A model generated the notes under the pieces. The model made no database searches and was not told where the DNA came from. It saw only the letters and a program-made list of their open reading frames with translations. The position numbers and the translations under genes were made by a program. From positions 1 to 18,703 of the forward strand of contig DASCPX010000044.1 in NCBI GenBank assembly GCA_036012755.1: DNA of 18,703 nt, in the 5' to 3' direction. Of this stretch, positions 1,489-18,525 are shown one piece after another. Source of the DNA: Myxococcota bacterium. Lineage in GTDB: Bacteria; Myxococcota_A; UBA796; CAJQPC01. Positions within the stretch are counted from its first letter, which is position 1; every line of letters starts with the position of its first letter.

Positions 1489-2739
1489 TCACTCCGCCCA
1501 CCAGGGCGACGCCCACGCGCGCTGCTCCACCCCGTCCACCGACGCTCGGATCCGCAGGTAGAACACGTCTGTCGAGGCCAGGGTCATCGACTCCGGCTCC
1601 TCCTCCACCGTCCCGCTCGCCGACACCAGCTCCCAGGTCCAGTCGTCCACCCCGGAGACCGAGACCGTCAGCGGCCACTGGCCGATCTCCAAGGCGCGGC
1701 CTGGCAGCTCTTCACCCGCCAGCGCCGTGATCTCCATCGGCCACGAGGCAGCGATGGTGCGCTTGTCGAGCAGGGCGTCGAAGACCTCTTCTCGCTCCAG
1801 CGACTCCACCCAGATCCCCGTGACACCGCCCGCGAAGGGGTGTGGCAAGGCCGTCTCCAGCAGGCCGTCCGAGTCCATGTCCACGTACAGACCGCTGGGA
1901 CCCGGGCCGTCGCTCAGGGACCCGGGTCGGGCGTCGTGGGAGTCCGTACCAGCCAGCAAGCCCGGTCGCTGTCCGGCTGCCAGCGCCGCCTGCAGGCTGC
2001 CCGAGCCATCGTGGAACTCCGAGAGCCCCCAGGCGCAGCCCTCGGAGAGCGGGTCGCGGCACTCGGAGCTGCCGTGCTCGCTGTGGACCTCCAACAGCAC
2101 CTCGTCCTCTGGGCCCGCGGCGTGACCCCAGTCCACCGACGCCGGGGTCGTCATGGCCGAGTGGTGGACGAAGGACAGCCAGCGGGTCGAGCAGGCCTCG
2201 ACCTCTGCCAGTCGCGAGTAGAGCTTGTCGGTGTTGCCAGCCGGCTCGTTGGGGTTCTCCCCGTAGACCTCCAGGCCGAGCTCGTCCTTCTGTCCGACCA
2301 GCTGGCAGCTGGGCACGCGCAGCTCCTCGCAAGCCCCTGGGGACTCGAAGACCACCGTGCGGTGGATGCCCTGGGCGTCGACGCAGTGGGCGGTCCACTC
2401 GTAGCCGGGGAAGACGACGAGCCCATCTGGCGCCGACTGGATGATCTCCAAGGTCCGAGGCCAGATCTCGTGGCCCACCCCGGTGGACAGGTCGGTGTAG
2501 GTGGAGAACTCCGCGTGGTCGGTCAGGGCAAGCACCGACAGCCCGTTCTGAAGCGCCGTATCGAGCACGTCCGCCGCGGGCATGCCCGGCTCGCGGGACA
2601 CGCAGCCCTCGCCGTTGGCCTCGCAGCCGTCCATGGAGAGGTTGGTGTGGGCGTGGAGATCGGCCCAGACGAGCCGGAGCCCCAGGGCCTCCGAGTCCAC
2701 GATCGTGGCGGGTCGACACGCCAACAGGGCCCACAGCAT
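1489..2739 (-). CDS. PHP-fold metallohydrolase lipoprotein (CehA/McbA / DUF3604-like), 416 aa
   Basis: Motifs WADLHAHTNLSMDG, LTDHAE, PGYEWT, HRTVVF, LLEVHSEHG, AGTDSHDARPG and GGVTGIW...REEVFDAL..RT.A. N-terminal lipobox LLAC; GC3-rich codons. Confidence 0.85.
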   Translation of the reverse strand: MLWALLACRPATIVDSEALGLRLVWADLHAHTNLSMDGCEANGEGCVSREPGMPAADVLDTALQNGLSVLALTDHAEFSTYTDLSTGVGHEIWPRTLEIIQSAPDGLVVFPGYEWTAHCVDAQGIHRTVVFESPGACEELRVPSCQLVGQKDELGLEVYGENPNEPAGNTDKLYSRLAEVEACSTRWLSFVHHSAMTTPASVDWGHAAGPEDEVLLEVHSEHGSSECRDPLSEGCAWGLSEFHDGSGSLQAALAAGQRPGLLAGTDSHDARPGSLSDGPGPSGLYVDMDSDGLLETALPHPFAGGVTGIWVESLEREEVFDALLDKRTIAASWPMEITALAGEELPGRALEIGQWPLTVSVSGVDDWTWELVSASGTVEEEPESMTLASTDVFYLRIRASVDGVEQRAWASPWWAE

Positions 2740-2744
2740 GCCGC

Positions 2745-2750
2745 AGGTTA
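2745..2750 (-). promoter_or_regulatory. Putative -10 element (TAACCT) of a leaderless transcript for 1489..2739
   Basis: TAnnnT 5 nt before the ATG, no SD, within a 20-bp divergent intergenic gap. Confidence 0.5.
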
Positions 2751-2759
2751 GATCGCCTC

Positions 2760-3812
2760 ATGCGCGAGCACATCCGCTCCACCGTGTCCTCCGGCGGACG
2801 CATCTCGCGGGAGTTGGCGACCTGGCTCTACCAGGAGGCCGACGACGCCCTGCTGAAGGAGCTCGCCGGCACCGTCCGAGCCCGCTTCCACCCTCCGAGA
2901 CGAGCCACCTACCTGAAGATGGCCATCGTCAACTACACGAACGTCTGCGTCGCCCGCTGCGACTACTGCGCCTTCTACCGTTTCCCCGGCGACCCGGAGA
3001 GCTACCTCCTGTCCACCGAGCAGGTCTGCGCGAAGATCGAGGCGCTCGTCGCTCACGGCGGCACCCTGGTCGGCTTCAACGGCGGCTTCCATCCGGATCT
3101 GCATATCGAGCACTACACAGAGCTCTTCCGCACGGTCCGGGCCCGCTACCCCGACGTCGAGTTCTACGAGATGACCGTCGCCGAGTTCATGTTCGTGACC
3201 AAGCGACAGGGCCTCGACTACGACGAGTCCGCCCGTCGCTTCCACCAGGCCGGAACGCGCTGGATCACCGGCGGCGGGGCAGAGGTGCTCGACGACGCCT
3301 TCCGCCTCCGACACAGCCCGGCCAAGTACAAGGTCGACGACTTCTACGAGGCCCAGCGCGCCCTGATCCGAAACGGCGTCGGCACGACCGCGACCATGGT
3401 CATCGGCTTCGACGAGACCCTCGACGAGCGCATGAACCACCTCGAGCGACTCAGGGACTTCCAGGACGAGCTCGGAGTCCTTCCGAGCTTCCTGTGCTGG
3501 ACCTACAAGCCCCACAACACCGACCTCGCTGGCGAGGAGGTCCCGCTGTCGGAGTACCTGCGCTGGCTCGCCGTCTGCCGCGTCTACCTCGACAACATCG
3601 AGCACATCCGGACCAGCGTGCTCACCCGCAACGCCGACGCCATGCTCGGGCTGCTGTACGGCGCCGACGACTTCGACCTGCCCACCGAGGACGAGGTCAC
3701 CCAGATGGCCGGGGCGACGATCTCCCACGACTTCGAGATCATCCTGCAGAGCGCCCGCCAGCTCGGCTTCGAGCCCGTCGCGCGAGCGCCGCTGACGCCT
3801 CAGGAGTCCTGA
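2760..3812 (+). CDS. mqnC: Radical SAM enzyme of the CofH/MqnC family (dehypoxanthine futalosine cyclase-like), 350 aa
   Basis: NYTNVCVARCDYCAFYR (CX3CX2C), GG.HPDL, GGGAEVLDD, TATM..G..ET..ER..HL..LR..QD, YLR.LA..R.YLDN, LYGADDF. The family is clear; the exact MqnC assignment is less certain. Confidence 0.75.
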   Translation: MREHIRSTVSSGGRISRELATWLYQEADDALLKELAGTVRARFHPPRRATYLKMAIVNYTNVCVARCDYCAFYRFPGDPESYLLSTEQVCAKIEALVAHGGTLVGFNGGFHPDLHIEHYTELFRTVRARYPDVEFYEMTVAEFMFVTKRQGLDYDESARRFHQAGTRWITGGGAEVLDDAFRLRHSPAKYKVDDFYEAQRALIRNGVGTTATMVIGFDETLDERMNHLERLRDFQDELGVLPSFLCWTYKPHNTDLAGEEVPLSEYLRWLAVCRVYLDNIEHIRTSVLTRNADAMLGLLYGADDFDLPTEDEVTQMAGATISHDFEIILQSARQLGFEPVARAPLTPQES

Positions 3813-4471
3813 GCTTCGCCCCGCTTCTCCATGCGCCCGAGGGCCTCTCGAGCCCGCCGCCCGTCGTCGTGCTCCTCGTCCTCTGCGGCGGCGAGGAACT
3901 GCTCGCGCGCCTCCTCCTTTCGCCCCGTGACGCGGCAGACGACGCCCAGGTTGTAGTGGGCCGCCGTGTCCCCCGGCTTCATGCGCAGGGCCTCGCGGTA
4001 CTTGTCCTCTGCCAGCTCGACCTCGCCGTCCTGCCAGTAGTCGAGCCCCTCGCGCACCTTGTTGCTGGCCTCGTGCACGATCTCGATGTCGATGACCGCC
4101 TTGATGCCCAGGTTGGTGACGACGAGCACCAGCGGCCCGGTCCAGAAGACGGTGGCGACCTCTCCTGCGACGACGAGCCCCAGCGGGATGTCGGGCCCGA
4201 TCTGCTTGCCCCGGAACTTCAGGCGGATCTTGGTGTACCTGCCCTGGTCGTAGATCGAGCGCAGCTTCTCGCCAAGGTTCTCCAGCGACTCGTCCAGGTG
4301 GTCGGGGTCGATCTCGACCTTCATGTTGTCGCTGGCCCATTCCTGGGCCTTCTCGGCGCGCGCGGCGGTCTTCTTGCGGGTCTTCTCGGACCACTCCCCC
4401 AGCTTCTTCCCCGCCTCCTCCGTCCACTTGCGGACGCTCTCGGCTGCCTTGTCGAAGTCACGCTCGGGCAT
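3800..4471 (-). CDS. TPR-containing protein with a DUF4342-like central domain, 223 aa
   Basis: True start is ATG 4471 after GGAGAG; the longer track ORF runs antisense into the next gene. Central segment KLRSIYDQGRYTKIRLKFRGKQIGPDIPLG plus a hydrophobic stretch; TPR AEDKYREALRMKPGDTAAHYNLGVV. Confidence 0.8.
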   Translation of the reverse strand: MPERDFDKAAESVRKWTEEAGKKLGEWSEKTRKKTAARAEKAQEWASDNMKVEIDPDHLDESLENLGEKLRSIYDQGRYTKIRLKFRGKQIGPDIPLGLVVAGEVATVFWTGPLVLVVTNLGIKAVIDIEIVHEASNKVREGLDYWQDGEVELAEDKYREALRMKPGDTAAHYNLGVVCRVTGRKEEAREQFLAAAEDEEHDDGRRAREALGRMEKRGEAQDS

Positions 4472-4527
4472 GCAGTCTCTCCGCTGTCGGGACCTAGGTG
4501 TACACCGGCCACGTCCTGACAACCACG

Positions 4528-4533
4528 TAGGAT
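4528..4533 (+). promoter_or_regulatory. Putative -10 element (TAGGAT) of a leaderless transcript for 4541..7249
   Basis: TAnnnT 7 nt before the ATG with no clear SD. An in-frame TGA at 4517-4519 prevents N-terminal extension. Confidence 0.45.
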
Positions 4534-4540
4534 CCCCTGC

Positions 4541-7249
4541 ATGTGGTTGATCTCCGTCGCGCTGGCCCAGAACTCCTCCGATGAATGGAGGACCGTCGAG
4601 ACCGATCACTACCGCCTGCACTACCCGCTGCAGGCCGAAGCATGGGCGCTCCAGACGGCCTCCCAGATGGACGACATCCGCGCCAGGACATCCGAGGAGA
4701 TCGGCTACGCGCCACCACAGATCATCGACGTCGTCGTCATGGATCCCTACGTCCAGTCCAACGGCTGGGCGCTGCCGAGCCTGCGCCGACCCCGCATGGG
4801 CCTCTATGCCTCGCCCCCTCCGGCTCACTCCGGGCTCGGCCACTATCGCAGCTGGAGCGAGGACCTCGTCGTGCACGAGGACGCCCACCAGGTCCACTTG
4901 CTGATCCCCTCGCGCCACCCGGTCTTCGACGGGCTGGCCTACTGGACCATCGGCTATGGCCCGCTGTCGAGGAAGTCCCCACGCTGGGTGGCAGAGGGCT
5001 ACGCGACGGTGATCGAGGGGCGCCTGACCGGCTGGGGTCGCCCGAACTCCAGGGGCCGCCAGGTCTTCCTCGCGACCCTTGCCCGCTATGGCGTGTTCCC
5101 GACCTACGACGAGCTGGACTTCTCCAATCGGTGGCAGGGCCGGGGGTACGCCTACCTCATCGGCAGCGCCTACCTCGAGTGGCTGGAGGCGACCTACGGT
5201 CAGGACAGCGTGCGCCAGCTGTGGGTCGCCATGAGCGCAAAGGACTCCCGCGACTTCGACGAGGCCTTCGAGGCGGTCTACGGCGAGGATCCGGCGACGC
5301 TGTACCAGCACTTCACTGCCTGGGTGACCTTCGGCGCCGTCTGGCCCGAGGTCTGGGGCGAGCCCCTCGAGGACAGCGTGTGGCTCGAGCTGGAGGGCAC
5401 GACCAGCGCCCCGACGCTCTCCCGTGATGGCAAGCGCATCGCGTTCGTCGACGAGTCCGGACTGGCCCCGCGGCTGACCGTCATGTCACTGGCCGAGGAC
5501 GAAGAGGCCCGAGAGGAGTGGGAAGAGGCCGACGCCGGGCGTCTCGAGGAGGACCCGGACGACATCCTGCTCGAGCCGCCGAGGCACTTCCACGCAGAGG
5601 TCGAGTACCGGCGAGCCCGCCCGGATCGGGCCGCGAACTTCCCTCGCTGGGTCGGCGACGACCTGTTGTTCACCAGCTGGTGGCTGGACGAGGGCGGCAA
5701 CTACGTGCCGGATCTCTTCCTGTGGACCCCCGGCCGAGGCGAGCGGCGGGTGACCACCGACGCGGCCGTGATCTACGCCGACCCCCACCCGAACCTCCGG
5801 TCGGCGGTCGGCGTGCGCACCCGCTGGGGCAGCTCCCAGCTGGTCGAGGTCGACCTGAAGACCGGCGCGGTCACCGAACTCACGGAGCCACGCGCCGACG
5901 TCGTCCACGACGCCCCCCGCTTCGATCCCGACGGCGAGTCCATCGTCTACCTCCTCGACGACGCGACCGGCGGCTGGCGGCTCATCCACCGGGACCTCGA
6001 CAGCGGCGAGGAGCGGGAGCTGGAGCTCCCCCTCGGCGTCACGCCCACCAGCCCCGAGTGGGCCCCCGATGGCCAGTCCGTCTACGTCAGCATCGGCGAC
6101 GAGATCTGGAGTGTTCCCCTCGACGGGGGCGCGACCGAGGTCGTCGTCAAGCGCGTCACCGGCGCCTTCGCTCCAGCAGCAGAGCGTGACGGGAGCGGGC
6201 TCTTCTTCCTCTCCATGCACCCCGACGGCCTCGACCTCCACCGGGTCGCCCTCGAGGGCCGCGAGCGGTCGCCGGTGCTCATCGACGCCATGGACGAGCC
6301 GCCACCGCCGCCGGAGAAGGAGGCGGTGACCCCGGGCCGGTACGCCCCTGGGCTGCCCTACCTGGCCCCCCTGGCTGGGGCGGCCTTCGACCACACCAGC
6401 TGGTCCGCGGACCTGGGCTTCCACGTCTCCGATCGGGCAGGCCGCGCCGAGCTGATCGGCTGGGTGACCGCCGACGGCGACGGGCTGCCGGGGGGCTCCT
6501 TGTTCATGGCGAACCACTGGTTCCCGGTGCGACTCGGGGCCGGAGTCGCCTTCGACGGCCTGAAGGATGATCGGCACGCGCTGTTGCTGCTCTCGGTCGC
6601 CCGGGACGAGCGCTGGGACGGCGGCGTGGGCTGGGCCGAAGTGGGAGCGTGGACACGGGATCAAGGCGACGCGGTCGGCTTCATCCGGGGCGGCGCGGGC
6701 CACGAGCAGTGGTTCGGCCCCGGATTCGCGCGAGGCGGGCTCGACCTGCACGCCCAAGGTGGTCAGGAAGCGGGCGGGCTCTGGGATCTGCGCGCCTCTC
6801 TCGGCGGTGGGGTGTGGGGCGTCGGGCTCGTCGGAAGCGCTGGAGTGGGTTCCTCGGGCGGATCTCCGTTCCAGGTAGGGGGCACGAACCGGAGCTCCCT
6901 GCTCGGCGGCACCGCCTCCCAGCTCCTCTTCGTCCCCGGTCTGCCGAAGGGCTCCCTGGTCGCCAGCCGCCACCAGGTGACTCGGGTGGAGCTCGTGACC
7001 CCAGTCGCCGTCAGCCTCTTCGGCGAGCGTCACGTGGACCTCGACGACGGCGACGCGGTCTCCTTCGTGGGTGTCGGCGTGCGGGAAGAGTCACCGCCGA
7101 TCCCCATGGACATGCGACCGAGCCTGGACCTCGACACCGGGATCGGCTGCCAGCTCGAGTACGCCTCCGGCCCATCTCCCACCCCGTGCGGCAGGCTCGA
7201 GGACTACCGTTTCTGGCTCTCGGCCACGTGGAAGCCCCGGATCGAGTAG
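4541..7249 (+). CDS. Exported multidomain protein: gluzincin-like (peptidase MA) domain + TolB/PD40 beta-propeller + probable C-terminal outer-membrane beta-barrel, 902 aa
   Basis: WRTVETDHYRLHY start, VVHEDAHQVH (HExxH) and PRWVAEGYA (third-ligand Glu). PD40-like repeats PTLSRDGKRIAF, PRFDPDGESIVY and PEWAPDGQSVYV. The C-terminal ~290 aa are Gly/aromatic alternating strands ending YRFWLSATW. Confidence 0.8.
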   Translation: MWLISVALAQNSSDEWRTVETDHYRLHYPLQAEAWALQTASQMDDIRARTSEEIGYAPPQIIDVVVMDPYVQSNGWALPSLRRPRMGLYASPPPAHSGLGHYRSWSEDLVVHEDAHQVHLLIPSRHPVFDGLAYWTIGYGPLSRKSPRWVAEGYATVIEGRLTGWGRPNSRGRQVFLATLARYGVFPTYDELDFSNRWQGRGYAYLIGSAYLEWLEATYGQDSVRQLWVAMSAKDSRDFDEAFEAVYGEDPATLYQHFTAWVTFGAVWPEVWGEPLEDSVWLELEGTTSAPTLSRDGKRIAFVDESGLAPRLTVMSLAEDEEAREEWEEADAGRLEEDPDDILLEPPRHFHAEVEYRRARPDRAANFPRWVGDDLLFTSWWLDEGGNYVPDLFLWTPGRGERRVTTDAAVIYADPHPNLRSAVGVRTRWGSSQLVEVDLKTGAVTELTEPRADVVHDAPRFDPDGESIVYLLDDATGGWRLIHRDLDSGEERELELPLGVTPTSPEWAPDGQSVYVSIGDEIWSVPLDGGATEVVVKRVTGAFAPAAERDGSGLFFLSMHPDGLDLHRVALEGRERSPVLIDAMDEPPPPPEKEAVTPGRYAPGLPYLAPLAGAAFDHTSWSADLGFHVSDRAGRAELIGWVTADGDGLPGGSLFMANHWFPVRLGAGVAFDGLKDDRHALLLLSVARDERWDGGVGWAEVGAWTRDQGDAVGFIRGGAGHEQWFGPGFARGGLDLHAQGGQEAGGLWDLRASLGGGVWGVGLVGSAGVGSSGGSPFQVGGTNRSSLLGGTASQLLFVPGLPKGSLVASRHQVTRVELVTPVAVSLFGERHVDLDDGDAVSFVGVGVREESPPIPMDMRPSLDLDTGIGCQLEYASGPSPTPCGRLEDYRFWLSATWKPRIE

Positions 7250-7258
7250 TAGGGCCCC

Positions 7259-7978
7259 ATGGACGCCATCGTCACCGGCAGCTCACGGGGCATCGGCCGC
7301 GCCATCGCGGTCCGCCTCGCCCGACACGGCGGCACGATCGTCGTGAACTTCCTCGTGAACGAGGACAAGGCCCAAGAGACCGCGGAGCTCGTGCGCGAGG
7401 CAGGCGGCCAGGCGATCGTGGTGCAGGCAAACGTGCGGGACCCGAAGAACCTCGCCCGACTCGCCGCGACCTTGGAGCGCTACGACGTGCTCGTCCACAA
7501 CGCGGCGATCGGGGTGCTCAAGCCCTACGACCAGATCCGACCGAACCAGTGGGACCTCACCCTGGAGTCCTCGGCGAAGCCCTTCTGGCTGCTCACGAAG
7601 ATGGTCGGAGAGCGGCTGGTCGACGGCGGCGCCATGGTCGGGCTCTCCTCGCTGGGCTCTCGCAAGCACGTGCCCGGCTACGCGGCCATGGGCGCGGCGA
7701 AGGGGGCGCTGGAGGCACTCACCCGCCAGCTGGCGGTGGAGCTCGCACCCAGGCGGATCCGCGTCAATACGGTCTGCGGCGGCCTCGTGGACACGGACGC
7801 GCTGAACTACTTCCCCGACCGGGACGCCATGGTCGAAGCGGCCAACCACTACACCCCCCTGGGCCGCGTCGGCGAGCCAGAGGACATCGCCAAGGCAGTC
7901 GAACTCCTGCTCCTGCCCCAGGCGAGCTGGATCACGGGGCAGGTCCTCATCGCGGACGGCGGGTGGTCCCTCTTGTAG
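7259..7978 (+). CDS. fabL: SDR-family oxidoreductase, FabL-like enoyl-ACP reductase, 239 aa
   Basis: TGSSRGIG cofactor motif, HNAAIGVLKP, catalytic Y-x6-K (YAAMGAAKGALEALTR..AVELAP), RVNTVCGG.VDTDAL..FP and WITGQVLIADGG, all FabL-like features. Confidence 0.75.
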   Translation: MDAIVTGSSRGIGRAIAVRLARHGGTIVVNFLVNEDKAQETAELVREAGGQAIVVQANVRDPKNLARLAATLERYDVLVHNAAIGVLKPYDQIRPNQWDLTLESSAKPFWLLTKMVGERLVDGGAMVGLSSLGSRKHVPGYAAMGAAKGALEALTRQLAVELAPRRIRVNTVCGGLVDTDALNYFPDRDAMVEAANHYTPLGRVGEPEDIAKAVELLLLPQASWITGQVLIADGGWSLL

Positions 7979-8157
7979 ACCTGCTCTACGTCGGCAGTGA
8001 CCGCGGTAACGGACACCGGCGCGGCCATGCCGGGGCAGACCGCGTCCTGGCCGACCAGCTCGGCGCGGAGTTCGACGACCTCGAGGTTCTTGAAGGGGAC
8101 CAGGCCCAGGTTGGCCTGGAGTCCCTGCAGGGTTGCGCATCCGGTGAGAAGCAGCAT
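7979..8157 (-). pseudogene. 3'-truncated lipoprotein gene (open frame 8157..7849 runs 130 nt antisense into fabL)
   Basis: Strong SD GAGGAGG, then MLLLTGCATLQGLQANLGLVPFKNLEVVELRAELVGQDAVCPGMAAPVSVTAVTAD... with typical codon usage for ~58 codons. It has no stop of its own before entering fabL. Confidence 0.6.
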
Positions 8158-8197
8158 CGATTCCTCCTCACCCCCCCCTTGGGACAGGTTGGTGAGA

Positions 8198-8941
8198 CTA
8201 CTCGTCGGCGGAAACTTCCATCTGCCATTCCCAGTCGCCGTAGCCGTCGACACCCTCGAAGTCCTCTCCCTTGTCGAGGTCCGTGAGCTGACCGAAGACC
8301 GGGACACGATGGGAGATCGTGCTCATGATGCCGAGGTAGCAGTCCGGCCCCTCGCAGTCGTCGTCTTCGGGGGTCGACCAGGGCTCGTCACCTGCGAGGT
8401 AGCTGCTCGCGGGCACCGTGGAGGTGTAGTAGCCGACATCAGCCGCGTCCCACTCGTCGGACACGGTCCAGGAGGCCTCGGTCCTCCAGGTCTCCTCGAG
8501 GTGACCGTCGAGGGTGTTGCCTTCCTGGCTGACGATGAGCTTCAGCGTTCGCGTGTCGCGCTGGTATTCGCTGTTGTGGTAGCCGGACTCGTGCTCGTTG
8601 TAGTCCTCGATCTCGACCAGATCGGTGACAGTGAAGACCCACTTGCCCTTGTCGTTCTTCTCGCCCTCCATGATCTGGCCGTTCACGAAGAGGTAGGCCT
8701 CGCCGGGGGCCTGGCCCGTGATCTGGGCGATGAAGGGGTCGTCGTCTACGACCGTGTCGGTCGTCCCCGTCCACTCGCTGTCTACGATCTCCTCCGAGGC
8801 GGGACAGTGTGCGTAGTGGAAGTTCTCTTCACAGGTGGCGTCGGTCTTCGTCTGGAGTCCGTCGGGGCTCGCGGTGAAGACCCAGATGCCCTCGACGGGG
8901 TTGGAGGTGTTGCAGGCGGTCAGGATGGTCAGAAGGGTCAT
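8198..8941 (-). CDS. Acidic, beta-rich hypothetical lipoprotein, 247 aa
   Basis: ATG 8941 after GGAGA; MTLLTILTAC lipobox; GC3-rich codons; two Cys pairs (CEENFHYAHC, CEGPDC). Confidence 0.8.
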   Translation of the reverse strand: MTLLTILTACNTSNPVEGIWVFTASPDGLQTKTDATCEENFHYAHCPASEEIVDSEWTGTTDTVVDDDPFIAQITGQAPGEAYLFVNGQIMEGEKNDKGKWVFTVTDLVEIEDYNEHESGYHNSEYQRDTRTLKLIVSQEGNTLDGHLEETWRTEASWTVSDEWDAADVGYYTSTVPASSYLAGDEPWSTPEDDDCEGPDCYLGIMSTISHRVPVFGQLTDLDKGEDFEGVDGYGDWEWQMEVSADE

Positions 8942-9096
8942 GGTGTCTCCATGGGTTCGGGTTGGGCCGATGGAACGCCACGTCGATCCTGGAGCTTTCA
9001 CCGCAGCCTGATATTCCTGGAACCAGGTCGCCCATCGAGTGTCACGCCGCCGCCGTTTCCAGCTGGACGAAGCCCCGGCCCTGGCTGATCGAGCGG

Positions 9097-9119
9097 CTGG
9101 GGGCGCGACCACCCCCCAG
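9097..9119. terminator. GC-rich hairpin just downstream of murJ (possible terminator or stabiliser)
   Basis: CTGGGGG-N9-CCCCCAG 7-bp stem, 14 nt after the murJ stop. There is no U-tract after the stem on the murJ strand, so it is not a canonical terminator. Confidence 0.3.
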
Positions 9120-9133
9120 AAAACCGCACGCCC

Positions 9134-10675
9134 TCAGCGCCCCAAGCGACTCCTCACCTTGCGACCCACCAACCCCACCACCTCGGCGACCTCTGGCACC
9201 CCGAAGAGCCGCGCGAGCACCAGGGTCGAGACCAGCGCCACCGAGCCCGTGATGGCCCCCTGCACCAAGGCCGGCATCGCCATCACGCCGTCCAGCGCCC
9301 GCCCTGCTACCACCGCCAGCGCCACCGCGGGGATCATGCGCAGCACCAGTGACCCGATACGCGGCGACTCCGCCCCTGCCATGCGCCGGCGAAGGAGCAC
9401 AGCCAGCACCGTCACGTAGGTGCCGACGGCCAGGGACGACGCCAGCGCCAGGCCCATCCCGCCGTGGATGGCCCCGAGCCACCGGTACAAGGGCCAGAAC
9501 AACAGCACCACCACGCTCCCGACCACTGTCGGCACCCAGGTGTTCTGGTTCGCGTAGAAGCCTCGGGCGATCAGCGTGGCCGCCGACCAGGCCCCGAGCG
9601 ACAGGCAGAACAAGGCCGTGTAGAGGCCGATCTCCTCGAGCTCCGCCCCCGTGAAGCGCGTCGTGCCCCAGATGACCTCTGCGACCTCTGCGCCAGCGAC
9701 GCTGAAGGCCGCCTGGGACGCGAAGGCCAGGACCAGCATCAAGCGGCAGGCCCGGACCAGGGTCTCGTAGGCCTCGACCCTCTTGCCCTCACCCATCAGC
9801 CGAGCCAGGGTCGGGTAGGCCGCCGTGCCAGTCGCCAGCCCGAAGACCCCCATCGGCACCTTCATCAGCGTCTTGGCGTACTGCAGCCGGCTGACCACGC
9901 CCTCCTCGACGAGGCTGCCGTAGCGCTTGAGCAGCCAGTCATCGACCACCATGATGCTGAAGCCGAGCATGATGGGCACCGACAGCCAGAGGTACCGGCG
10001 GAAGTCGGGATCCGAGAGCGACAGCCCGAGCCTCCAGCCCAGCCGGGTACGCAGGCAGCCGATCAGCGGGAGCCCGAAGGGCCCGACGGCGCTGCCGACC
10101 AGGACACCCCAGGCGAAGGCCTCGGCCCCCCAGGTCGGGCCGAAGACCAGCCCCATGCCGACGATGCAGCCCGTGTAGCCGATGTTCGCGAAGGCGGCCT
10201 CGACGTGTCGATCCTTTGCCTGCAGGACCGCCGACAGCAGCCCCCCCACCACGTGGAAGACCTGCGCCGGCAGGACGATGCGGGTGAGCCGCGTGAGCTC
10301 GACCAGCTGCTCTTCAGAGAAGCCCGGGGCGACCAGCGGCACCAACTGCGGCGCCGCCACCCACAGCCCTGCGGTCGCCAGCCCCAGGACCAGCACCACG
10401 AAGTTCGCGATGCGCGAGAACGCCCGCCATCCTCCGTCCTCGTCCCCCTCGCTCAGGTAGCGGCTGAAGATCGGGATGAAGACGATGGTCAGCGCCCCGC
10501 CCGCCAGCAGGTAGTTGAGGAAGTCCGGCAGAACGAAAGCCGACCAGTAGACGTCCGCCTCGCCCCCGCCCCCGAGCACCCGCCCGATCACCGCCTCGCG
10601 CACGACACCGATGACCCGGCTCAAAAGGACCGAGGTCCCCCAGATCAGCGCGGCGATTCCAATTCGGCGGCTCAC
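9134..10675 (-). CDS. murJ: Lipid II flippase MurJ (MviN), 513 aa
   Basis: LLSRVIGVVRE...ADVYWSAFVLPD, GGALTIVFIPIF, LQYA..LM.VPMGVFG.A..TA.YP.LAR, RGFYA.QNT..P, GLALASSL; many hydrophobic segments. Confidence 0.95.
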   Translation of the reverse strand: MSRRIGIAALIWGTSVLLSRVIGVVREAVIGRVLGGGGEADVYWSAFVLPDFLNYLLAGGALTIVFIPIFSRYLSEGDEDGGWRAFSRIANFVVLVLGLATAGLWVAAPQLVPLVAPGFSEEQLVELTRLTRIVLPAQVFHVVGGLLSAVLQAKDRHVEAAFANIGYTGCIVGMGLVFGPTWGAEAFAWGVLVGSAVGPFGLPLIGCLRTRLGWRLGLSLSDPDFRRYLWLSVPIMLGFSIMVVDDWLLKRYGSLVEEGVVSRLQYAKTLMKVPMGVFGLATGTAAYPTLARLMGEGKRVEAYETLVRACRLMLVLAFASQAAFSVAGAEVAEVIWGTTRFTGAELEEIGLYTALFCLSLGAWSAATLIARGFYANQNTWVPTVVGSVVVLLFWPLYRWLGAIHGGMGLALASSLAVGTYVTVLAVLLRRRMAGAESPRIGSLVLRMIPAVALAVVAGRALDGVMAMPALVQGAITGSVALVSTLVLARLFGVPEVAEVVGLVGRKVRSRLGR

Positions 10676-10743
10676 GGCTTGTCGCTCCTATGGCGCGTGC
10701 CAAGCTGGGTGCAATCAAGACCCGCACCTCGGGTGCAAGCTGC

Positions 10744-11946: not shown

Positions 11947-11976
11947 GGCCGCGAGCGAGGCGCCATGGGCGCCAGT

Positions 11977-11982
11977 TACCTT
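11977..11982 (+). promoter_or_regulatory. Putative -10 element (TACCTT) of a leaderless transcript starting at 11989
   Basis: TAnnnT 6 nt before the ATG; no SD. Confidence 0.45.
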
Positions 11983-11988
11983 GGCGCC

Positions 11989-12438
11989 ATGCTGACGCTT
12001 CTGCTGACCTTCGCCTGCAACAAGTCTCGCCCCTCCACCACCGACGACAGCGCCGTCGACACCGCCGGCGAGATCGACGACGAGGACGGCGACGGCTAGG
12101 CCGACGGCGACGACTGCGACGACACGGACGAGGGCGTCAACCCCGACGCGACAGAGGTCTGCAACGGCCTCGACGACGACTGCGACGGGGACACTGACGA
12201 GGGCGTCATGACCTGGTTCTACGTCGACGACGACAACTCCGAGGTCTACCCAGACGCCAGCGAGGTCTGCGACGGCGTCGACAACGACTGTGACTCACTG
12301 ACCGACGCGGACGACGACAGCGTCGATCTGTCCACCGCCACCACCTGGTATGCAGACGCCGACAGCGACGGCGCCTACGACGTGACCCTTGCCGACCTCA
12401 CCATCTCGCCGTCGGCCAGCTGGAAGTCCGGGCTGTAG
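11989..12438 (+). pseudogene. Degraded lipoprotein with MopE-related putative metal-binding repeats
   Basis: MLTLLLTFAC..., DEDGDG*ADGDDCDDTDEGVNPDATEVCNGLDDDCDG, then VYPDASEVCDGVDNDCD and TWYADADSDG. In-frame TAG at 12097-12099; the second repeat lacks its DGDG...DC half; the 3' end overlaps the convergent gene. Confidence 0.85.
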
Positions 12439-13823
12439 GCCTCGTAGGTCCAGCCGCTGTCCTCGGTGGCGCGGTAGAGCCGCGTGGCGGGGAAGAAGAA
12501 GGCCGTGGGCTCCAGGGGATCGGCAAGCACCGGCGGAATCCAGGGCACATAGGACTCATCCGCCGGGAAGCTCACGCCCTCGGTCCAGGGGTTGTCCTCG
12601 TCGTGTTGGATGAGCACGAAGCCCGGGTAGGTCGTGTAGACGAGATCGTGGCTGTTGTCGCCCGAGGTGATGTGGCCGTAGTCGCCTGAGACCAGCTGGT
12701 AGAACTCCAAGGGCTCGTCGGCGTCCTGGGTGGCATAGGCCGTCACCTGCCAGCCCTGGTCCTGGGCTCCGGCGAGGACCCGGTCCGGGTTGTTCCAGCT
12801 CGTGTGCACGTCGTAGTACTGGCTGGCCCGCAGCCCATCCAGAGAGAGGTTGTGGACCGTCGCGAGCGAGTCCGTCGAGGTGTAGAGGCCACCGTCGGTG
12901 TCGACGTACCAGACCTCGCCGTCACCCTCTGGCCGCACGTCGATGCCCATGATGTCTGCGTGGAGGTAGATGTCCTCGTCGCCGCCGTAGGCCGTGTAGT
13001 AGGCCCACCAGTTGTTCTTCTTCGAGGCGCTCTGCCCGCCGTCGCGGCTCACGTGGAGCTCGATACCGCCGTAGGCGACCAGCTCGGCGTCGACGACGCC
13101 GGCGTTGAGGCTGCCCCAGTAGTCGTGGTCCACGAGCTTCCGCTGGACGAAGGTCGAGCCGGCGTCCGCCGAGCGGTACATCCGGCTGGCGTCGAGCACG
13201 ACGTAGAGCGTCTGGGAGCCGTCGCTGGTCATCAGCAGGCGGTGGATCCAGCTCATGGCCTCGGGCTGGCCGCTGGGGGCCACCCACGTGACACCCTCGT
13301 CGTCGCTGTGGTGGATGAGCCCGCCGTCGGTGGCGGCCACGACCCGCCGGCCGGAGTCGGTCTCCAGGACCTCGAGCCAGTGCGCGCCGCCGTAGAGGTT
13401 GTCGCCGATCGGCTCCCAGCTGGTGCCGTCGGGATCGCTCTTCCAGACGCCTCCCCGGCTCGAGCCCGCGTAGAGCTTCGTGCCGTCTGCCGTGACCCGA
13501 GCGACGTGCATGCGCCCTGCCTGGTTGTCGCTGCCCCGCTCGACCCAGCTGCCCTCGGTGCTCGGTGGGGCCTCCGCGAGCCCGTTGCGCCGGGCGATCT
13601 GATCGAGCCCGTTGTGCTCCTCGACAGCGTCCACGTCCACCCCGGGGGGCGCCCGACGCATCTCGGCGAACCAGGCCTTTCGCCGGGCCTTCTGGTCCCC
13701 CTTCGACGCAATGAACTCCTCGAGTCCACCGAAAGGACCAGGTGTAGGCGCCGGAATCCGGCGCTCGGCCGAGACGACCGCGAGGGCGCAGAGGGCCACG
13801 GCAGAGAGCAGGACACGGCGCAT
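12375..13823 (-). CDS. Exported Asp-box (BNR / VPS10-sortilin-like) beta-propeller protein, 482 aa, probably 3'-truncated
   Basis: Conventional signal peptide MRRVLLSAVALCALAVVSA; WVERGSDNQAGR; Asp-boxes WKSDPDGTSW, HHSDDEGVTW, YRSADAGSTF, HVSRDGGQS; LHADIMG, DTDGGLY, GAQDQG. It ends abruptly inside the opposite-strand pseudogene. Confidence 0.8.
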   Translation of the reverse strand: MRRVLLSAVALCALAVVSAERRIPAPTPGPFGGLEEFIASKGDQKARRKAWFAEMRRAPPGVDVDAVEEHNGLDQIARRNGLAEAPPSTEGSWVERGSDNQAGRMHVARVTADGTKLYAGSSRGGVWKSDPDGTSWEPIGDNLYGGAHWLEVLETDSGRRVVAATDGGLIHHSDDEGVTWVAPSGQPEAMSWIHRLLMTSDGSQTLYVVLDASRMYRSADAGSTFVQRKLVDHDYWGSLNAGVVDAELVAYGGIELHVSRDGGQSASKKNNWWAYYTAYGGDEDIYLHADIMGIDVRPEGDGEVWYVDTDGGLYTSTDSLATVHNLSLDGLRASQYYDVHTSWNNPDRVLAGAQDQGWQVTAYATQDADEPLEFYQLVSGDYGHITSGDNSHDLVYTTYPGFVLIQHDEDNPWTEGVSFPADESYVPWIPPVLADPLEPTAFFFPATRLYRATEDSGWTYEAYSPDFQLADGEMVRSARVTS

Positions 13824-13831
13824 GGGCGCGC

Positions 13832-13837
13832 AGTGTA
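13832..13837 (-). promoter_or_regulatory. Putative -10 element (TACACT) for 12375..13823
   Basis: TAnnnT 8 nt before the ATG; no SD between it and the start codon. Confidence 0.45.
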
Positions 13838-13876
13838 GCGGGCTCCGGGATAGGATTCAGACACTGCAGGAGACGG

Positions 13877-14959
13877 ATGGAGCGCGACCCACGCAAAGAC
13901 CTGAAGGTCGGTCTCTTCGTGTTCGGCGCCGTGCTTCTCGGTGGACTCGCCGTCTTCATGCTCGGCGGCAGCTCAGAGCTCTTCGAGGACCGCTACACGC
14001 TGAACACCAAGTTCAACGACGTGGCCGGCCTGCGCGAGGGCGCCGTGGTCAGGCTCGGCGGCTTCGACGTGGGCGAGGTGAAGTCGATCTCGTTCTCGGA
14101 AGACATCGGCGTGAAGGAGATCTTTGTCGAGCTCTCCGTCTTCGAGTCCTACCAGGCCCGCATCCGCGCCGACTCGGTCGCCCGCATCGAGACGGAGGGC
14201 ATGCTCGGGGACAAGTACATCTCCATCTCGGTCGGCTCGGTCGAGGAGGAGATCCTTTTGGCCGAGGGCTGGCTCTCCGTCACGGAGAACGTCCCGCTGG
14301 TCGAGTACCAGAAGATCGCCAACGAGGTCCTCGCAGATCTCCAGGACATCTCCCACAAGATCAACCTCGCCCTCGGCGACGACGACGAGGCCACGAAGGC
14401 ATCCGTGGCCAACGTCGTGGCCAGCGTAGAGAACATCCTCAACGAGGCCGAGTCCGGCAACGGGCTCATCCACGCGCTGGTCTACGACGACTCCCTCACG
14501 CGGAAGCTCAACCGCACGGCCACCAACCTCGAGCACGGCACCTCGGACCTCGCCGAGATCACAGAGGAGGTCCGGACCGGAGAGGGCCTCGCCAACGAGC
14601 TCATCTACGGCGACGAGGGCGAGAAGCTCGCCATCCAGCTGGGCGACCTCGCGGCTGCGCTGGAGAAGATCGTCGGGGACATCGAGAACGAGGACTCGGT
14701 GATCCACGCTCTCATCTACGACCCGGACAAGGCCCAGCTGGTCGAGGATCTCAAGATCACCGCCGCCAACCTCCGCGACATCAGCGAGGGCATCGAGGAG
14801 GGCGACGGCACCCTCGGCATGCTCGCGCAGGACCCGGCGCTCTACGAGGACCTCCGGGCGCTCGTCAACGGCGCGGAGCGGAACAAGCTCCTTCGCTACT
14901 ACGTGCGCAAGACCGTCGAGGAAGGCGAGAAGGACATGGCCGAGCCGTGGGAGCCCTGA
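13877..14959 (+). CDS. mlaD: MCE/MlaD-family protein with long helical C-terminal region, 360 aa
   Basis: SD AGGAG; N-terminal TM (KVGLFVFGAVLL); MCE motifs FNDVAGLREGAVVRLGGFDVGEV and IETEGMLGDKYISI; repeated G.G.I.AL.YD units and GDGTLGMLAQDPALYEDL. Confidence 0.9.
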   Translation: MERDPRKDLKVGLFVFGAVLLGGLAVFMLGGSSELFEDRYTLNTKFNDVAGLREGAVVRLGGFDVGEVKSISFSEDIGVKEIFVELSVFESYQARIRADSVARIETEGMLGDKYISISVGSVEEEILLAEGWLSVTENVPLVEYQKIANEVLADLQDISHKINLALGDDDEATKASVANVVASVENILNEAESGNGLIHALVYDDSLTRKLNRTATNLEHGTSDLAEITEEVRTGEGLANELIYGDEGEKLAIQLGDLAAALEKIVGDIENEDSVIHALIYDPDKAQLVEDLKITAANLRDISEGIEEGDGTLGMLAQDPALYEDLRALVNGAERNKLLRYYVRKTVEEGEKDMAEPWEP

Positions 14960-16656
14960 GGGTCACACCGCAGGCCCTGCTGCGACCCAGGATCACCGGA
15001 CTCCTGAACCGCTGGCGCAAAGCGGACAACCGCCAGAAGTTCGCCTACACGCTCTTCGGCATCGGCGGTGTCGTCTTCTGGCTCGGGCTCTTCTTCGGTC
15101 TGGGCTACGTCGCGGAGCTCTTCTACCAGGTCGAGGTCTTCGGCCCGCTGATCACGCGCAAGCTGCTCGAGCTCTTGTTGCTCGCGCTGTTCTCGATGCT
15201 GATGTTCTCGAACGTCGTGACGGCTCTGTCGAGCTTCTACCTCTCAGAGGATCTCGAGCTGCTGTTGAGCCTGCCCGTGTCCCGCGAGACCTTCTTCTAC
15301 ACCCGCCTGGTGGACACGCTCGGTCAGTCCAGCTGGATGATGGGCATGTTCGGGGTGCCGGTCTTCCTGGCCTTTGGCCTCGCGGCGAACGCTGGCTGGC
15401 CCTACTACGCGTCGCTCCTGGTCGTGATCCCGTCCTTCCTGCTGATCCCGGCGGCGGCAGGCGCCGTCGTGTCTTCCTTGCTGGTCAACGGCTTCTCCGC
15501 CAGGAGGACCAAAGAGGTCCTGGCGGTCCTCGGCATCCTCTTCATCGTGTCGATCTTCATCCTGCTGCGCGTCATGCAGCCGGAGCGCCTGCTCAACGCC
15601 CAGGACTTCGAGAGCCTCGCCGCCTACGTGGCGACCCTGCAGAACCCGATGCCGCTGTTGGTCCCCCCGCGCTGGGCCGGGGACGTGCTCGGGGCCACGC
15701 TCCAGGGCCGGCCCTTTCCCTGGGACCAGCTGGTGCTCCTGCTCAGCGGGGCCATCGGCTTCACCGGGCTCTCCCGCTGGATCACCATGCGGCTGTGGGC
15801 GGACGGTTGGACACGCGCCCAGGAGGCGACGCGGGCTCGGTTGGCGAAGGCCGGGGGCTTCGACCGGGCGCTCAAGGTCCTCACCCGGAGGCTGCCAGGA
15901 CAGCAGGCGACGCTGCTCATCAAGGACGCAAAGGTCTTCGTGCGGGACCCGGCCCAGTGGAGCCAGGTCTTCCTGCTCGTGTCGCTGGTGGTCATCTACC
16001 TGTTCTCGGTCCAGGCCCTGCCGCTGGACTTCATCAGGGGGGCCTACGCCCAGGCCTTCAAGAACGCCCTGGCCTTCCTCAACCTCGGCATGGCCGGCTT
16101 CGTCATGGCCGCCATCGCCGTGCGCTTCCAGTTCGCCTCGATCTCGGGCGAGGGCCGCGCCTTCTGGATCATCCGCACCGCCCCCATCGAGCCGGTCAGG
16201 TACATCTGGACGAAGGCCTTCCCTGGCTGGCTTCCGATGTTGCTGGTCGGAGAGATCCTGGTCGTCGCCAGCAACGTGATCCTGGAGTCGCCTGTGGAGC
16301 TCACGTGCGTCGGCGCAGCCAGCGTGCTGCTGTTGTCCCTCGGCATCTCGGGCATCGCGGTGGGGGTCGGCGCGACCTACCCGGACTTCAAGGCGGACAA
16401 CGTGGCCCGCGCGGCGGCGGGGCCTGGCGCCATCCTCTTCATGATCACGGCGCTGGTGTTCGTCGCCCTGGTGGTCGCGCTGGAGGCCATGCCGGTCTGG
16501 TACCTGTTGAAGGCGGACCTGGAGGGGGCCTCGCTGACCAACCGCGAGCTGGCGATCTCGGCCCTGCTGTATTCGGCGAGCATCGGGGCTTGCGCGCTGG
16601 CGGCCTGGCTGCCGGTCAAGCGTGCCGCCGCCGGTCTCTGGGCCCGCGACCTTTGA
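14947..16656 (+). CDS. Putative ABC-2-type exporter permease (~12 TM), ~569 aa
   Basis: GTG 14947 overlaps the mlaD end. Motifs FSNVVTALSSFYLSEDLELLLSLPV, LLIKDAKVFVRDPAQWSQ, FASISGEGRAFWIIRTAPI and GVGATYPDF. The upstream part of track ORF 13612..16656 is a shadow of mlaD. Confidence 0.85.
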   Translation: MGALRVTPQALLRPRITGLLNRWRKADNRQKFAYTLFGIGGVVFWLGLFFGLGYVAELFYQVEVFGPLITRKLLELLLLALFSMLMFSNVVTALSSFYLSEDLELLLSLPVSRETFFYTRLVDTLGQSSWMMGMFGVPVFLAFGLAANAGWPYYASLLVVIPSFLLIPAAAGAVVSSLLVNGFSARRTKEVLAVLGILFIVSIFILLRVMQPERLLNAQDFESLAAYVATLQNPMPLLVPPRWAGDVLGATLQGRPFPWDQLVLLLSGAIGFTGLSRWITMRLWADGWTRAQEATRARLAKAGGFDRALKVLTRRLPGQQATLLIKDAKVFVRDPAQWSQVFLLVSLVVIYLFSVQALPLDFIRGAYAQAFKNALAFLNLGMAGFVMAAIAVRFQFASISGEGRAFWIIRTAPIEPVRYIWTKAFPGWLPMLLVGEILVVASNVILESPVELTCVGAASVLLLSLGISGIAVGVGATYPDFKADNVARAAAGPGAILFMITALVFVALVVALEAMPVWYLLKADLEGASLTNRELAISALLYSASIGACALAAWLPVKRAAAGLWARDL

Positions 16657-16973
16657 TCTGGCTTCTGGCCTGCTTTCAGAAGACGCCGCCAGCGCCGGTG
16701 GTCGAAGAAGTGGAGCAGGCTGTTCGTTACAACCACGTGGCCCGAGCCCACTACATCCGCGCCAACATGCACCGCGAGCGGGGAGAGCTCTCGCTCGCGG
16801 CGGCCGAGTACAAGCGCGCCATCCTCTTCGATCCAAAGGCCGCCGTGCTCTACCTCGAGCTCGCAGAGGTGCGCGCAGCCCTGGGCGAAGACGAGCTGGC
16901 GCTCGAGTATCTCCGCGAGGCCGCCCTGCTCGGCTCGGAGGAGGCACGGGCGCTCCTCGTCGAAGGCGATTAG
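16653..16973 (+). CDS. Small TPR lipoprotein, 106 aa
   Basis: TTG start overlaps the permease TGA (TTGA); MIWLLAC lipobox; TPR AAAEYKRAILFDPKAAVLYLELAEVRAALGEDELALEYLREA. Confidence 0.8.
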   Translation: MIWLLACFQKTPPAPVVEEVEQAVRYNHVARAHYIRANMHRERGELSLAAAEYKRAILFDPKAAVLYLELAEVRAALGEDELALEYLREAALLGSEEARALLVEGD

Positions 16974-16982
16974 CGGGGGCGC

Positions 16983-17948
<966 letters not shown>

Positions 17949-18018
17949 CGGGCGGGCGTCGGCTCTGTGCTGGCTGTCAGACCCGGTAGTGGGGACAAGG
18001 GCGGGGCGACGGCCGAAC

Positions 18019-18225
18019 TATCGCGCCGATCACATAGGTTGATTCGATGATCGCGCCGCAATGTGTGCGGCTGGGTAGGCGGCCCGACGAAGGCGTGTCT
18101 GGACACTTCGAGGAGGGTCAACGGGGCGAAGCGTTGCCAAACCCGAAGGTCGGCGAGCCCCGTTGCCGCCGCCAGGCGTGCGCAGGGCAAGCGAGGGCGA
18201 ATCAACCGGAGTGATCGGCGCGATA
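18019..18225. mobile_element. 207-bp MITE-like element with 28-bp terminal inverted repeats
   Basis: TATCGCGCCGATCAC-ata-GGTTGATTCG (18019-18046) pairs with CGAATCAACC-gga-GTGATCGGCGCGATA (18198-18225) at 25/28 positions. TA at both extremities, internal hairpins, no transposase. Confidence 0.75.
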
Positions 18226-18229
18226 CTGC

Positions 18230-18235
18230 TACGCT
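18230..18235 (+). promoter_or_regulatory. Putative -10 element (TACGCT) before ATG 18241
   Basis: TAnnnT 5 nt before the ATG; no SD. Confidence 0.4.
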
Positions 18236-18240
18236 CCGCA

Positions 18241-18525
18241 ATGCTCTGACTCTCGCTCGCCCTGGCCGCCGAATCGACCGTCTATGGAGGTGCGAGCCTC
18301 AACGCTGGCTATTCGCCCTTCCGCGGATACAACAGCTTGATCGAGGACGGATTGGAGGATCCGAACGTCGATCCTGACTACGGCGGGTTCGGACCGTATG
18401 GCGGGTTGGCCTTTGGAGTGGGCGGTGGGACACCCCCTCTCGTCGCTCTCCCCCTTCAACCCCGGACATCAACAACCAGGAAGACTCCAACGGCTTCGAT
18501 ACACCACTTGACGGGACACAGCTAA
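18241..18525 (+). pseudogene. Degraded exported protein gene (nonsense codon 3, probable later frameshift and truncation)
   Basis: ATG CTC TGA CTC TCG CTC GCC CTG GCC GCC = ML*LSLALA-AESTVYGGASLNAGYSPFRGYNSLIEDG..., in frame with track ORF 18337..18525. A second frame near 18463 reads PDINNQEDSNGFDTPLDGTQLK. Confidence 0.6.

Follow-up and report, generated by a model that had tools for sequence, protein, structure and literature searches.

The 18,703-nt contig DASCPX010000044.1 of a Myxococcota bacterium (hereafter the window, meaning this whole stretch; the pieces shown span positions 1,489 to 18,525) encodes proteins that begin with a handful of hydrophobic, uncharged residues ahead of a lipobox-like Cys or an Ala-x-Ala-type site. 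Textbooks treat the tripartite signal peptide as universal in Sec export and in the modification of bacterial lipoproteins. On balance, we favor the view that the N-termini found here, and throughout the source genome, are Sec signal peptides cut down to their hydrophobic and cleavage regions. An initial annotation had described eight exported proteins of this kind in the window. All eight N-termini lie where it placed them; on translation, five belong to intact genes, one to a truncated gene and two to pseudogenes, so the description stands for the five and fails for the 102-aa fragment at 8157, the frame at 11989 that stops at codon 37 and the 2-codon open reading frame (ORF) at 18241. The window genes concerned, together with a canonical control, are as follows, the leader being the residues ahead of the hyphen in M...-C and SPase standing for signal peptidase:

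1489..2739, minus strand: intact lipoprotein-type gene for a DUF3604/PHP-like metallohydrolase of 416 aa (PF12228, E 1e-9); leader MLWALLA-C, 7 aa, at 2719-2739.
4541..7249, plus strand: intact SPase I-type gene, 902 aa, with an HEXXH motif and a PD40 propeller; leader MWLISVALA-Q, 9 aa, at 4541-4567.
7849..8157, minus strand: truncated gene, a 102-aa ORF entering an opposite-strand SDR gene, no Pfam family; leader MLLLTG-C, 6 aa.
8198..8941, minus strand: intact lipoprotein-type gene, 247 aa, no Pfam family; leader MTLLTILTA-C, 9 aa.
11989..12438, plus strand: pseudogene; leader MLTLLLTFA-C, 9 aa, then a TAG at 12097-12099 and, in the same frame, MopE-type Asp-rich repeats (PF11617).
12375..13823, minus strand: propeller protein with a weak Sortilin-Vps10-like match, the canonical control; Arg-bearing 19-aa leader MRRVLLSAVALCALAVVSA.
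16653..16973, plus strand: intact TPR lipoprotein-type gene, 106 aa; leader MIWLLA-C, 6 aa; its TTG start overlaps the TGA of the preceding gene.
16983..17948, plus strand: intact DUF4292 lipoprotein-type gene (PF14125), 321 aa, GTG start; leader MTALLLSWVLG-C, 11 aa.
18241..18525, plus strand: pseudogene remnant, ATG-CTC-TGA (TGA at 18247-18249) followed by LSLALA-A.

The starts at 2739, 4541 and 16983 are fixed, as had been claimed: in-frame stops lie 6, 7 and 3 codons upstream, with no alternative start codon between. The start at 8157 has an SD-like (Shine-Dalgarno-like) GAGGAGG at proper spacing, and in-frame upstream start codons also occur at -32 and -50 codons; that at 8941 was picked by our start model and has a GGAG at SD spacing, and upstream in-frame start codons exist. 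The frame at 11989 runs for 36 codons before the TAG, with a possible alternative ATG 8 codons upstream, and the same TAG is present in contigs from another study (X3 record 7, X5 record 13) with zero differing letters. As a 2-codon ORF, 18241 is not a protein; it lacks its stop in one low-depth (4.6) contig of run X7. Contigs from another study agree with the window at seven of the eight start regions, and window DNA is present in marine metagenomes.

We examined start positions across the source genome (G000; assembly of 6.73 Mb, 68.4% GC, 95.95% complete), in which a purpose-built dicodon caller found 5831 genes and a start model was applied to 5462. An anchor test that uses no start calls compared lipobox-like Cys codons near gene starts (n=996) with those in gene interiors (n=599). 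ATG preceded the N-terminal anchors at -7 in 17.8%, at -8 in 12.8% and at -6 in 9.2%, against ~2% in interiors. The sign of the coding score also changes upstream of the N-terminal anchors, turning positive at about -9. Where an ATG stands 5-12 codons ahead of the Cys (540 genes), no in-frame ATG/GTG/TTG lies upstream in 275, even CTG/ATH is missing upstream in 157, and an in-frame stop falls at most 14 codons from the Cys in 102; G content peaks 9 bases ahead of the ATG. Of 537 genes, 52, 58, 43 and 18 have an upstream gene that ends 14, 17, 20 and 23 nt, respectively, ahead of the Cys codon, which is the spacing of NTGA-coupled starts for leaders of 6-9 residues; in 274 of the 537 the upstream gene ends at most 36 nt away. 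SD 5-mers at 30-34 nt before the Cys occur in 9.7% (controls, 2.7%). The positions of ATG, Shine-Dalgarno motif and upstream stop thus independently set starts 6-9 codons ahead of the Cys. The genome-wide tabulation of Cys that the initial annotation had suggested shows a pattern well beyond what chance would give: across the 5462 genes, Cys occurs in 5.8% at residue 8 vs about 1.4% at residues 13-30.

Lipobox proteins make up 922 of the 5462 genes, and 767 of them (83%) have leaders of 4-12 residues with a mode of 7. Lys or Arg (K/R), as in the positively charged n-region of Sec/SPase II signals, is present in only 17 of these 767, and in 19 of the 540 leaders of the ATG-based set. The remaining 155 lipobox leaders are longer, mostly K/R-bearing from 15 residues up, and some are mis-called; K/R hardly occurs in leaders under 13 residues and is the rule from 15. 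Proteins with a hydrophobic start and no Cys show an [AS]x[AG] site in 373 of 661 cases, ending mostly at residues 7-13. An Ala-x-Ala-type site within 13 residues, assigned by a crude rule, defines 321 proteins with acidic residues thereafter, and the charged n-region is missing from these also (K/R in 7/321, under a filter that required uncharged residues 2-6). Short leaders of both types account for 1088 of the 5462 genes. The 767 Cys-type leaders comprise 641 distinct sequences over 516 unrelated mature clusters and are therefore not one expanded family. They retain an h-region (median uncharged run 6 vs 12 in the genome's canonical set), are 53% Leu and are slightly more hydrophobic than canonical leaders (Kyte-Doolittle 3.04 vs 2.80). 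The twin-arginine motif is found elsewhere, in 19 separate RR-motif proteins; the short leaders lack Arg. The expectation that standard predictors would miss much of the secretome was borne out for a simple length-plus-charge rule (Cys at 15-35, K/R in the first 7; not SignalP), which passes 91 of the 922 lipobox proteins.

Cargo was sampled in two ways. Chosen by leader, 146 short-leader proteins were drawn from 20 stretches of 20 kb rich in such leaders, and 132 of them were searched against Pfam (14 were left out for size). The families found include a TonB-dependent receptor, two Omp85, OmpA, ZnuA and two multiheme c-type cytochromes, as well as lytic transglycosylase (SLT), LysM, YceI, NosD, sulfatases, FG-GAP and lectin proteins. 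Chosen by domain, short uncharged leaders were present on 3/3 Omp85 proteins, 3/3 correctly called TonB receptors and 3-4/6 SBP5 proteins (three TonB and four OmpA rows, with overlapping ORF matches or no call, were not counted); a BamA-like 810-aa Omp85 protein begins with MIHLLLAFWIALA followed by Gln, and two Pal-like OmpA proteins retain canonical leaders. Cytoplasmic controls hardly ever carried them (Walker-A proteins 1/153, Ser/Thr kinases 0/49, response regulators 0/11). To judge from the families represented (Omp85/BamA, TonB receptors, DegP, c-type cytochromes), the cargo would lie outside the cytoplasm, and that the short leaders act as export signals is very likely. The proposal that this lineage routinely places minimal uncharged leaders on exported-type proteins is upheld by the 767 and 321 leaders taken with these controls.

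Orthologues carry the link to ordinary signals. DUF4292 orthologues were located in 26 of 30 genomes. The leader is short and uncharged in four (G000, G202, G242 and G014), and 21 of the other 22 rows, read by eye, share its h-region and Cys in a leader bearing K/R. These normal Lys/Arg leaders on relatives' orthologues argue that the short leaders are Sec signals minus the n-region. Orthologues of the TPR neighbor had a short uncharged leader in six of eight rows with a readable N-terminus. Among 120 DegP homologues with public gene calls, many short uncharged starts stand alongside long ones; the source names on the close homologues include Myxococcota, Deltaproteobacteria and (Alpha)proteobacteria bacterium. 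As a separate observation, the BamD orthologue (loci L008 and L013-L041, the row of genome G112 left out) has, in most of the order's genomes, an SPase I-type leader with no lipobox Cys; about 3 of the 29 rows that could be read show a lipobox.

We then followed the trait through 44 genomes of the order and 257 outside it. Matches to a strict DNA pattern built on 7-residue leaders numbered 18-96 in 10 of the 44 and never exceeded nine in any of the 257; with another first codon, the pattern's noise in G000 was 2-18 matches. Samples of ~100 kb from ten other genomes of the order contained 93 lipobox proteins, 55 of them short and uncharged, with a range from 0/6 (G067) to 14/16 (G014), these kin not being independent. 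Outgroups of 61-73% GC had 4/36 short leaders, a small count from four genomes, and 1/1 in a 20-kb piece of a fifth. Genomes rich in short leaders sit on separate branches of the SecY tree, which suggests order-wide tolerance for short leaders with repeated expansion.

The leaders were compared with known systems. With Sec/SPase II signals (E. coli Lpp type) they share an N-terminal hydrophobic run, a small -1 residue, the invariant Cys, a polar low-complexity tether and homology to the canonical leaders of orthologues, and Lgt, LspA and Lnt are encoded; they differ in lacking a charged n-region, in a whole length of 4-12 residues and in a -2 that is usually Leu. With Sec/SPase I signals (n-h-c, Ala-x-Ala) they share the Leu-rich h-region, Ala-x-Ala, an acidic early mature region, an encoded LepB and cargo such as beta-barrels, DegP and binding proteins, and differ in having no n-region and about 7-13 residues. 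Class III leaders of type IV prepilins and archaellins likewise can be very short, but those are charged and cut on the cytoplasmic side ahead of a hydrophobic stretch that stays, whereas here the hydrophobic stretch is the leader. By these features the leaders would work like Sec/SPase I and II signals while lacking the n-region that defines them. The n-h-c form is standard, and a basic N-terminus mainly improves efficiency, according to the available portions of PMC9360617 and PMC8048626. The phrase "non-canonical code" was too strong, since the leaders consist of the h- and c-regions known from ordinary Sec signals, in a genome where canonical signals coexist. A full-text literature search (titles and abstract openings; most subscription journals outside it) returned no description of such leaders in a bacterial lineage, and the accessible part of a secretome study covering Myxococcota metagenome-assembled genomes (PMC11495043) makes no mention of them.

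Export and lipidation machinery, as encoded, appears conventional in overall form, and an adaptation of SecA, SecYEG, the signal recognition particle (SRP), Lgt, LspA or LepB, as the initial annotation implied, is tentative at most: Ffh, FtsY, 4.5S RNA, SecA, SecY, LepB, LspA, Lgt and Lnt all look ordinary overall, and the substitutions fixed in the order also occur in unrelated lineages. G000 encodes one SecY, one SecA, Ffh, FtsY, 4.5S RNA and SecDF, together with three LepB-family proteins, two LspA, five Lgt, one Lnt above cut-off and two deformylases. Both LspA copies align normally and keep both catalytic Asp motifs. Of the order's 44 genomes, 41 have two SRP GTPases and three have one; 4.5S RNA is present in 5/5 genomes searched. 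Loss of SRP was ruled out, since Ffh, FtsY and 4.5S RNA are all encoded, as was loss of peptide deformylase (which would keep the formyl group), with two copies encoded. LspA duplication as an adaptation was ruled out too, being present in 5/8 outgroup genomes. One candidate accessory gene was identified:

G000 contig C43, 68496-69935 (L259:391-1830): fusion of a membrane domain and a SecD P1 head, 479 aa, about five hydrophobic segments.

This fusion has only two other homologues, a marginal likeness to SecY (transmembrane segment 5; E 0.03-0.05) and no counterpart in trait-bearing G202, G242, G014, G152, G282 and G297, and was rejected as a dedicated translocon part. Separately, G000 holds a tandem lspA-lspA-lgt-lgt cluster (contig C59, 99967-102600; L001-L005), three further Lgt-family genes elsewhere, two with a divergent G-R-L-G-C-F motif region, and tRNA-SeC.

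Substitutions in SecY and SecA (E. coli numbering) were then surveyed. SecY 187, which in the accessible text of PMC2171872 is a member of the isoleucine pore ring, is Ala or Ser in 24/24 genomes of the order and Ile or Met in four outgroups (0/4, a small sample). F192 is replaced by T/S/A/V in the order vs Phe in outgroups, and A79V and M169C are nearly fixed; I82, I86, I191, I278 and I408 are retained, the ring residues other than I187 being unchanged. Compensation between A79 and I187 was rejected, as the two showed no covariation among representatives. A loose SecY DNA pattern matched 234 of 301 genomes and was uninformative; a stricter one matched 5/257 outside the order, all Thr, and missed 24/44 order genomes through flanking variation. 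SecA L372 is Tyr in 22/23 genomes of the order vs Leu or Val in seven outgroups, and adjoins A373, where bulky residues confer a Prl phenotype (bioRxiv 10.1101/2021.08.31.458331, as far as its available text goes). The excerpts available of PMC3164448 place prl mutations mostly in the pore ring, gate and plug. Mutants of the E. coli prlA (SecY) and prlD (SecA) type would yield the same phenotype, and in the order pore-ring position 187 is occupied by a small residue and the site beside Stem A373 by a bulky one; the differences are that the classic allele sites tested (I191, I278, I408, Y134, A373, H484, A507) are unchanged and that these are natural fixed states also occurring in other lineages. 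The change at I187 is, as a candidate, a lead only. Loss of the acidic patch in the SecA preprotein-binding domain was discarded, the same deletion relative to E. coli being present in outgroups. Two other SecA features of the order were seen (loci L201-L230): Arg before the two-helix-finger tip in 23/23 genomes vs His/Gln, and a C-terminal zinc site ending Cys-Cys vs Cys-His in outgroups.

We propose that short-leader proteins pass through the ordinary SecA/SecYEG route, possibly with SRP. Cys-type leaders would receive diacylglyceryl from Lgt, be cut by LspA and be acylated by Lnt, and Ala-x-Ala leaders would be cut by LepB; export by standard Sec with processing by Lgt, LspA and LepB seems likely from the encoded proteins. 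A leader of 6-8 residues could not span the bilayer as a helix with its Cys at the periplasmic face, seven helical residues measuring about 10 A (our arithmetic, standard helix geometry). A leader too short to span would have to be pulled inside the channel or the membrane, a move open only to an uncharged N-terminus; this geometric argument fits the near-absence of K/R below 13 residues and its presence from 15 up. The most speculative step is that the order's translocase may be relaxed like that of E. coli prl mutants (SecY I187A/S with F192T, A79V), which would have let new starts within the Leu-rich h-region spread gene by gene, unevenly among genera. That the SecY changes are causal for short-leader tolerance is a tentative idea, and we are doubtful of its fullest version, in which the whole order would have fixed a prl-like Sec translocase (SecY I187A/S, F192T, A79V, perhaps SecA L372Y) accepting sub-membrane-length signals, and Lgt, LspA and LepB would process a leader held in the channel or outer leaflet.

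Several points weigh against reading the leaders as trimmed Sec signals admitted by a relaxed translocase. Gene and start calls were home-made, and the lipobox filter bars charge at -5 to -1, so that the neutrality of the 144 leaders of at most six residues is built in. The strict lipobox [LV][ASTVI][GAS]C (the form given in the accessible part of PMC8048626) occurs in 155/767 short vs 41/94 canonical leaders, because -2 is mostly Leu (Cys and a small -1 are present by selection); Leu, Phe, Trp or Met occupies -2 in 559 of the 767. One of the 132 sampled proteins, a carbamoyltransferase, is a clear cytoplasmic false positive. A/S/T at SecY 187 recurs in 27 of 147 distant representatives, four with an F192 change too; G067 has both the SecY and SecA changes, yet 0/6 short leaders in 100 kb, and G112 has one doubtful case in three. 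SecA L372Y is also found in 13 genomes of two other families, where the 7-residue pattern matches 0-2 times, and as these families (f31 and f35) have the same Tyr without the pattern, L372Y was rejected as a trait marker; an 80-kb f31/f35 sample held two lipobox rows, neither short, too few to judge. The prlD hot spots Y134, A373, H484 and A507 are unchanged, and the literature search found no description of SecY I187A/S or SecA L372Y as a prl allele.

The strongest rival holds that no adaptation is needed: ordinary Sec, Lgt and LspA would suffice for a Leu-rich 7-mer, mature domains would aid targeting, and drift with gene compaction would do the rest. The conventional machinery, the Leu content and slightly raised hydrophobicity of the leaders, the many starts NTGA-coupled to an upstream stop, the single short leaders in each of five outgroup samples and the spread from 0/6 to 14/16 within the order are all what it would lead one to expect. 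A neutral process should, however, show elsewhere in the phylum, and equally GC-rich outgroups reach only 4/36, with the 7-residue pattern confined to low counts in all 257 genomes outside vs 18-96 in 10/44 inside; we regard this explanation as unlikely.

Less probable still is a dedicated route or lineage-specific factor (SRP/YidC co-translational export, or an unknown chaperone or translocon partner) that reads Met-hydrophobic-Cys/Ala leaders alongside normal Sec signals. Two clean leader classes do coexist, short-uncharged and long-charged, five Lgt and three LepB-family genes could divide substrates, and SRP is intact. Orthologues nonetheless swap classes with the same h- and c-region, intermediate lengths occur, the SecD P1 fusion, as the sole candidate accessory gene, does not track the trait, and two LspA copies are common in outgroups too.

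It is improbable that the proteins are exported yet retain the leader to serve as a small anchor in the membrane, whether or not the Cys is acylated. The LspA catalytic dyad lies at the membrane-periplasm interface, as the available text of PMC8048626 has it. A non-spanning leader may not be presented to LspA or LepB as usual, and the Leu, Phe, Trp or Met at -2 in 559/767 leaders would fit this. Retention clashes with the cargo, since beta-barrels like BamA and the TonB receptors must normally be set free from the inner membrane; moreover, LspA keeps both Asp motifs, the small -1 before Cys is kept (A 369, G 91, S 80 of 540, although small -1 was part of the search pattern), and the class without Cys ends in Ala-x-Ala and then turns acidic. 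Finally, artefact (true starts further upstream through mis-calls, non-standard starts, frameshifts or assembly errors) is very improbable. At 68% GC open frames run long, in-frame start codons lie upstream of some genes and the calls are our own, but mis-calling is largely refuted by the ATG positions, the in-frame stops (102/540), the missing upstream CTG/ATH (157/540), the close upstream gene ends (274/537), the same short DegP N-termini in public gene calls of many relatives and the independent contigs that match the window starts.

Elsewhere in the window, 2760-3812 is an MqnC/CofH-type radical SAM gene and 9134-10675 is murJ, both ordinary. The row at 13877-17948 comprises mlaD, an ABC_tran_2 membrane protein and the TPR and DUF4292 lipoproteins, and the TPR-DUF4292 pair adjoins in at least ten genomes of the order. 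A repeat at 18456-18522 overlies the 3' part of the 18241 remnant, with identical stretches on contigs C72 and C107. Positions 1-1260, at the contig end, hold transposase-like fragments around an AT-richer stretch (~320-1020) with a 174-aa ORF, resembling insertion-sequence debris.

In genomes of this kind, predicting lipoproteins by rule overlooks about nine of every ten lipobox proteins. The 641 distinct Cys-type minimal leaders, the long/short orthologue pairs and the short list of SecY/SecA substitutions constitute a natural resource that opens to direct test the minimal signal, the role of positive charge and how Lgt and LspA reach their substrate. About 20% of the called genes, core outer-membrane biogenesis included, use half the tripartite signal or less. 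If the order has indeed fixed a relaxed translocase, the n-region and the membrane-spanning h-region would not be requirements but proof-reading features peculiar to certain lineages, and the relaxed state would have arisen independently in any other lineage with ultra-short leaders.

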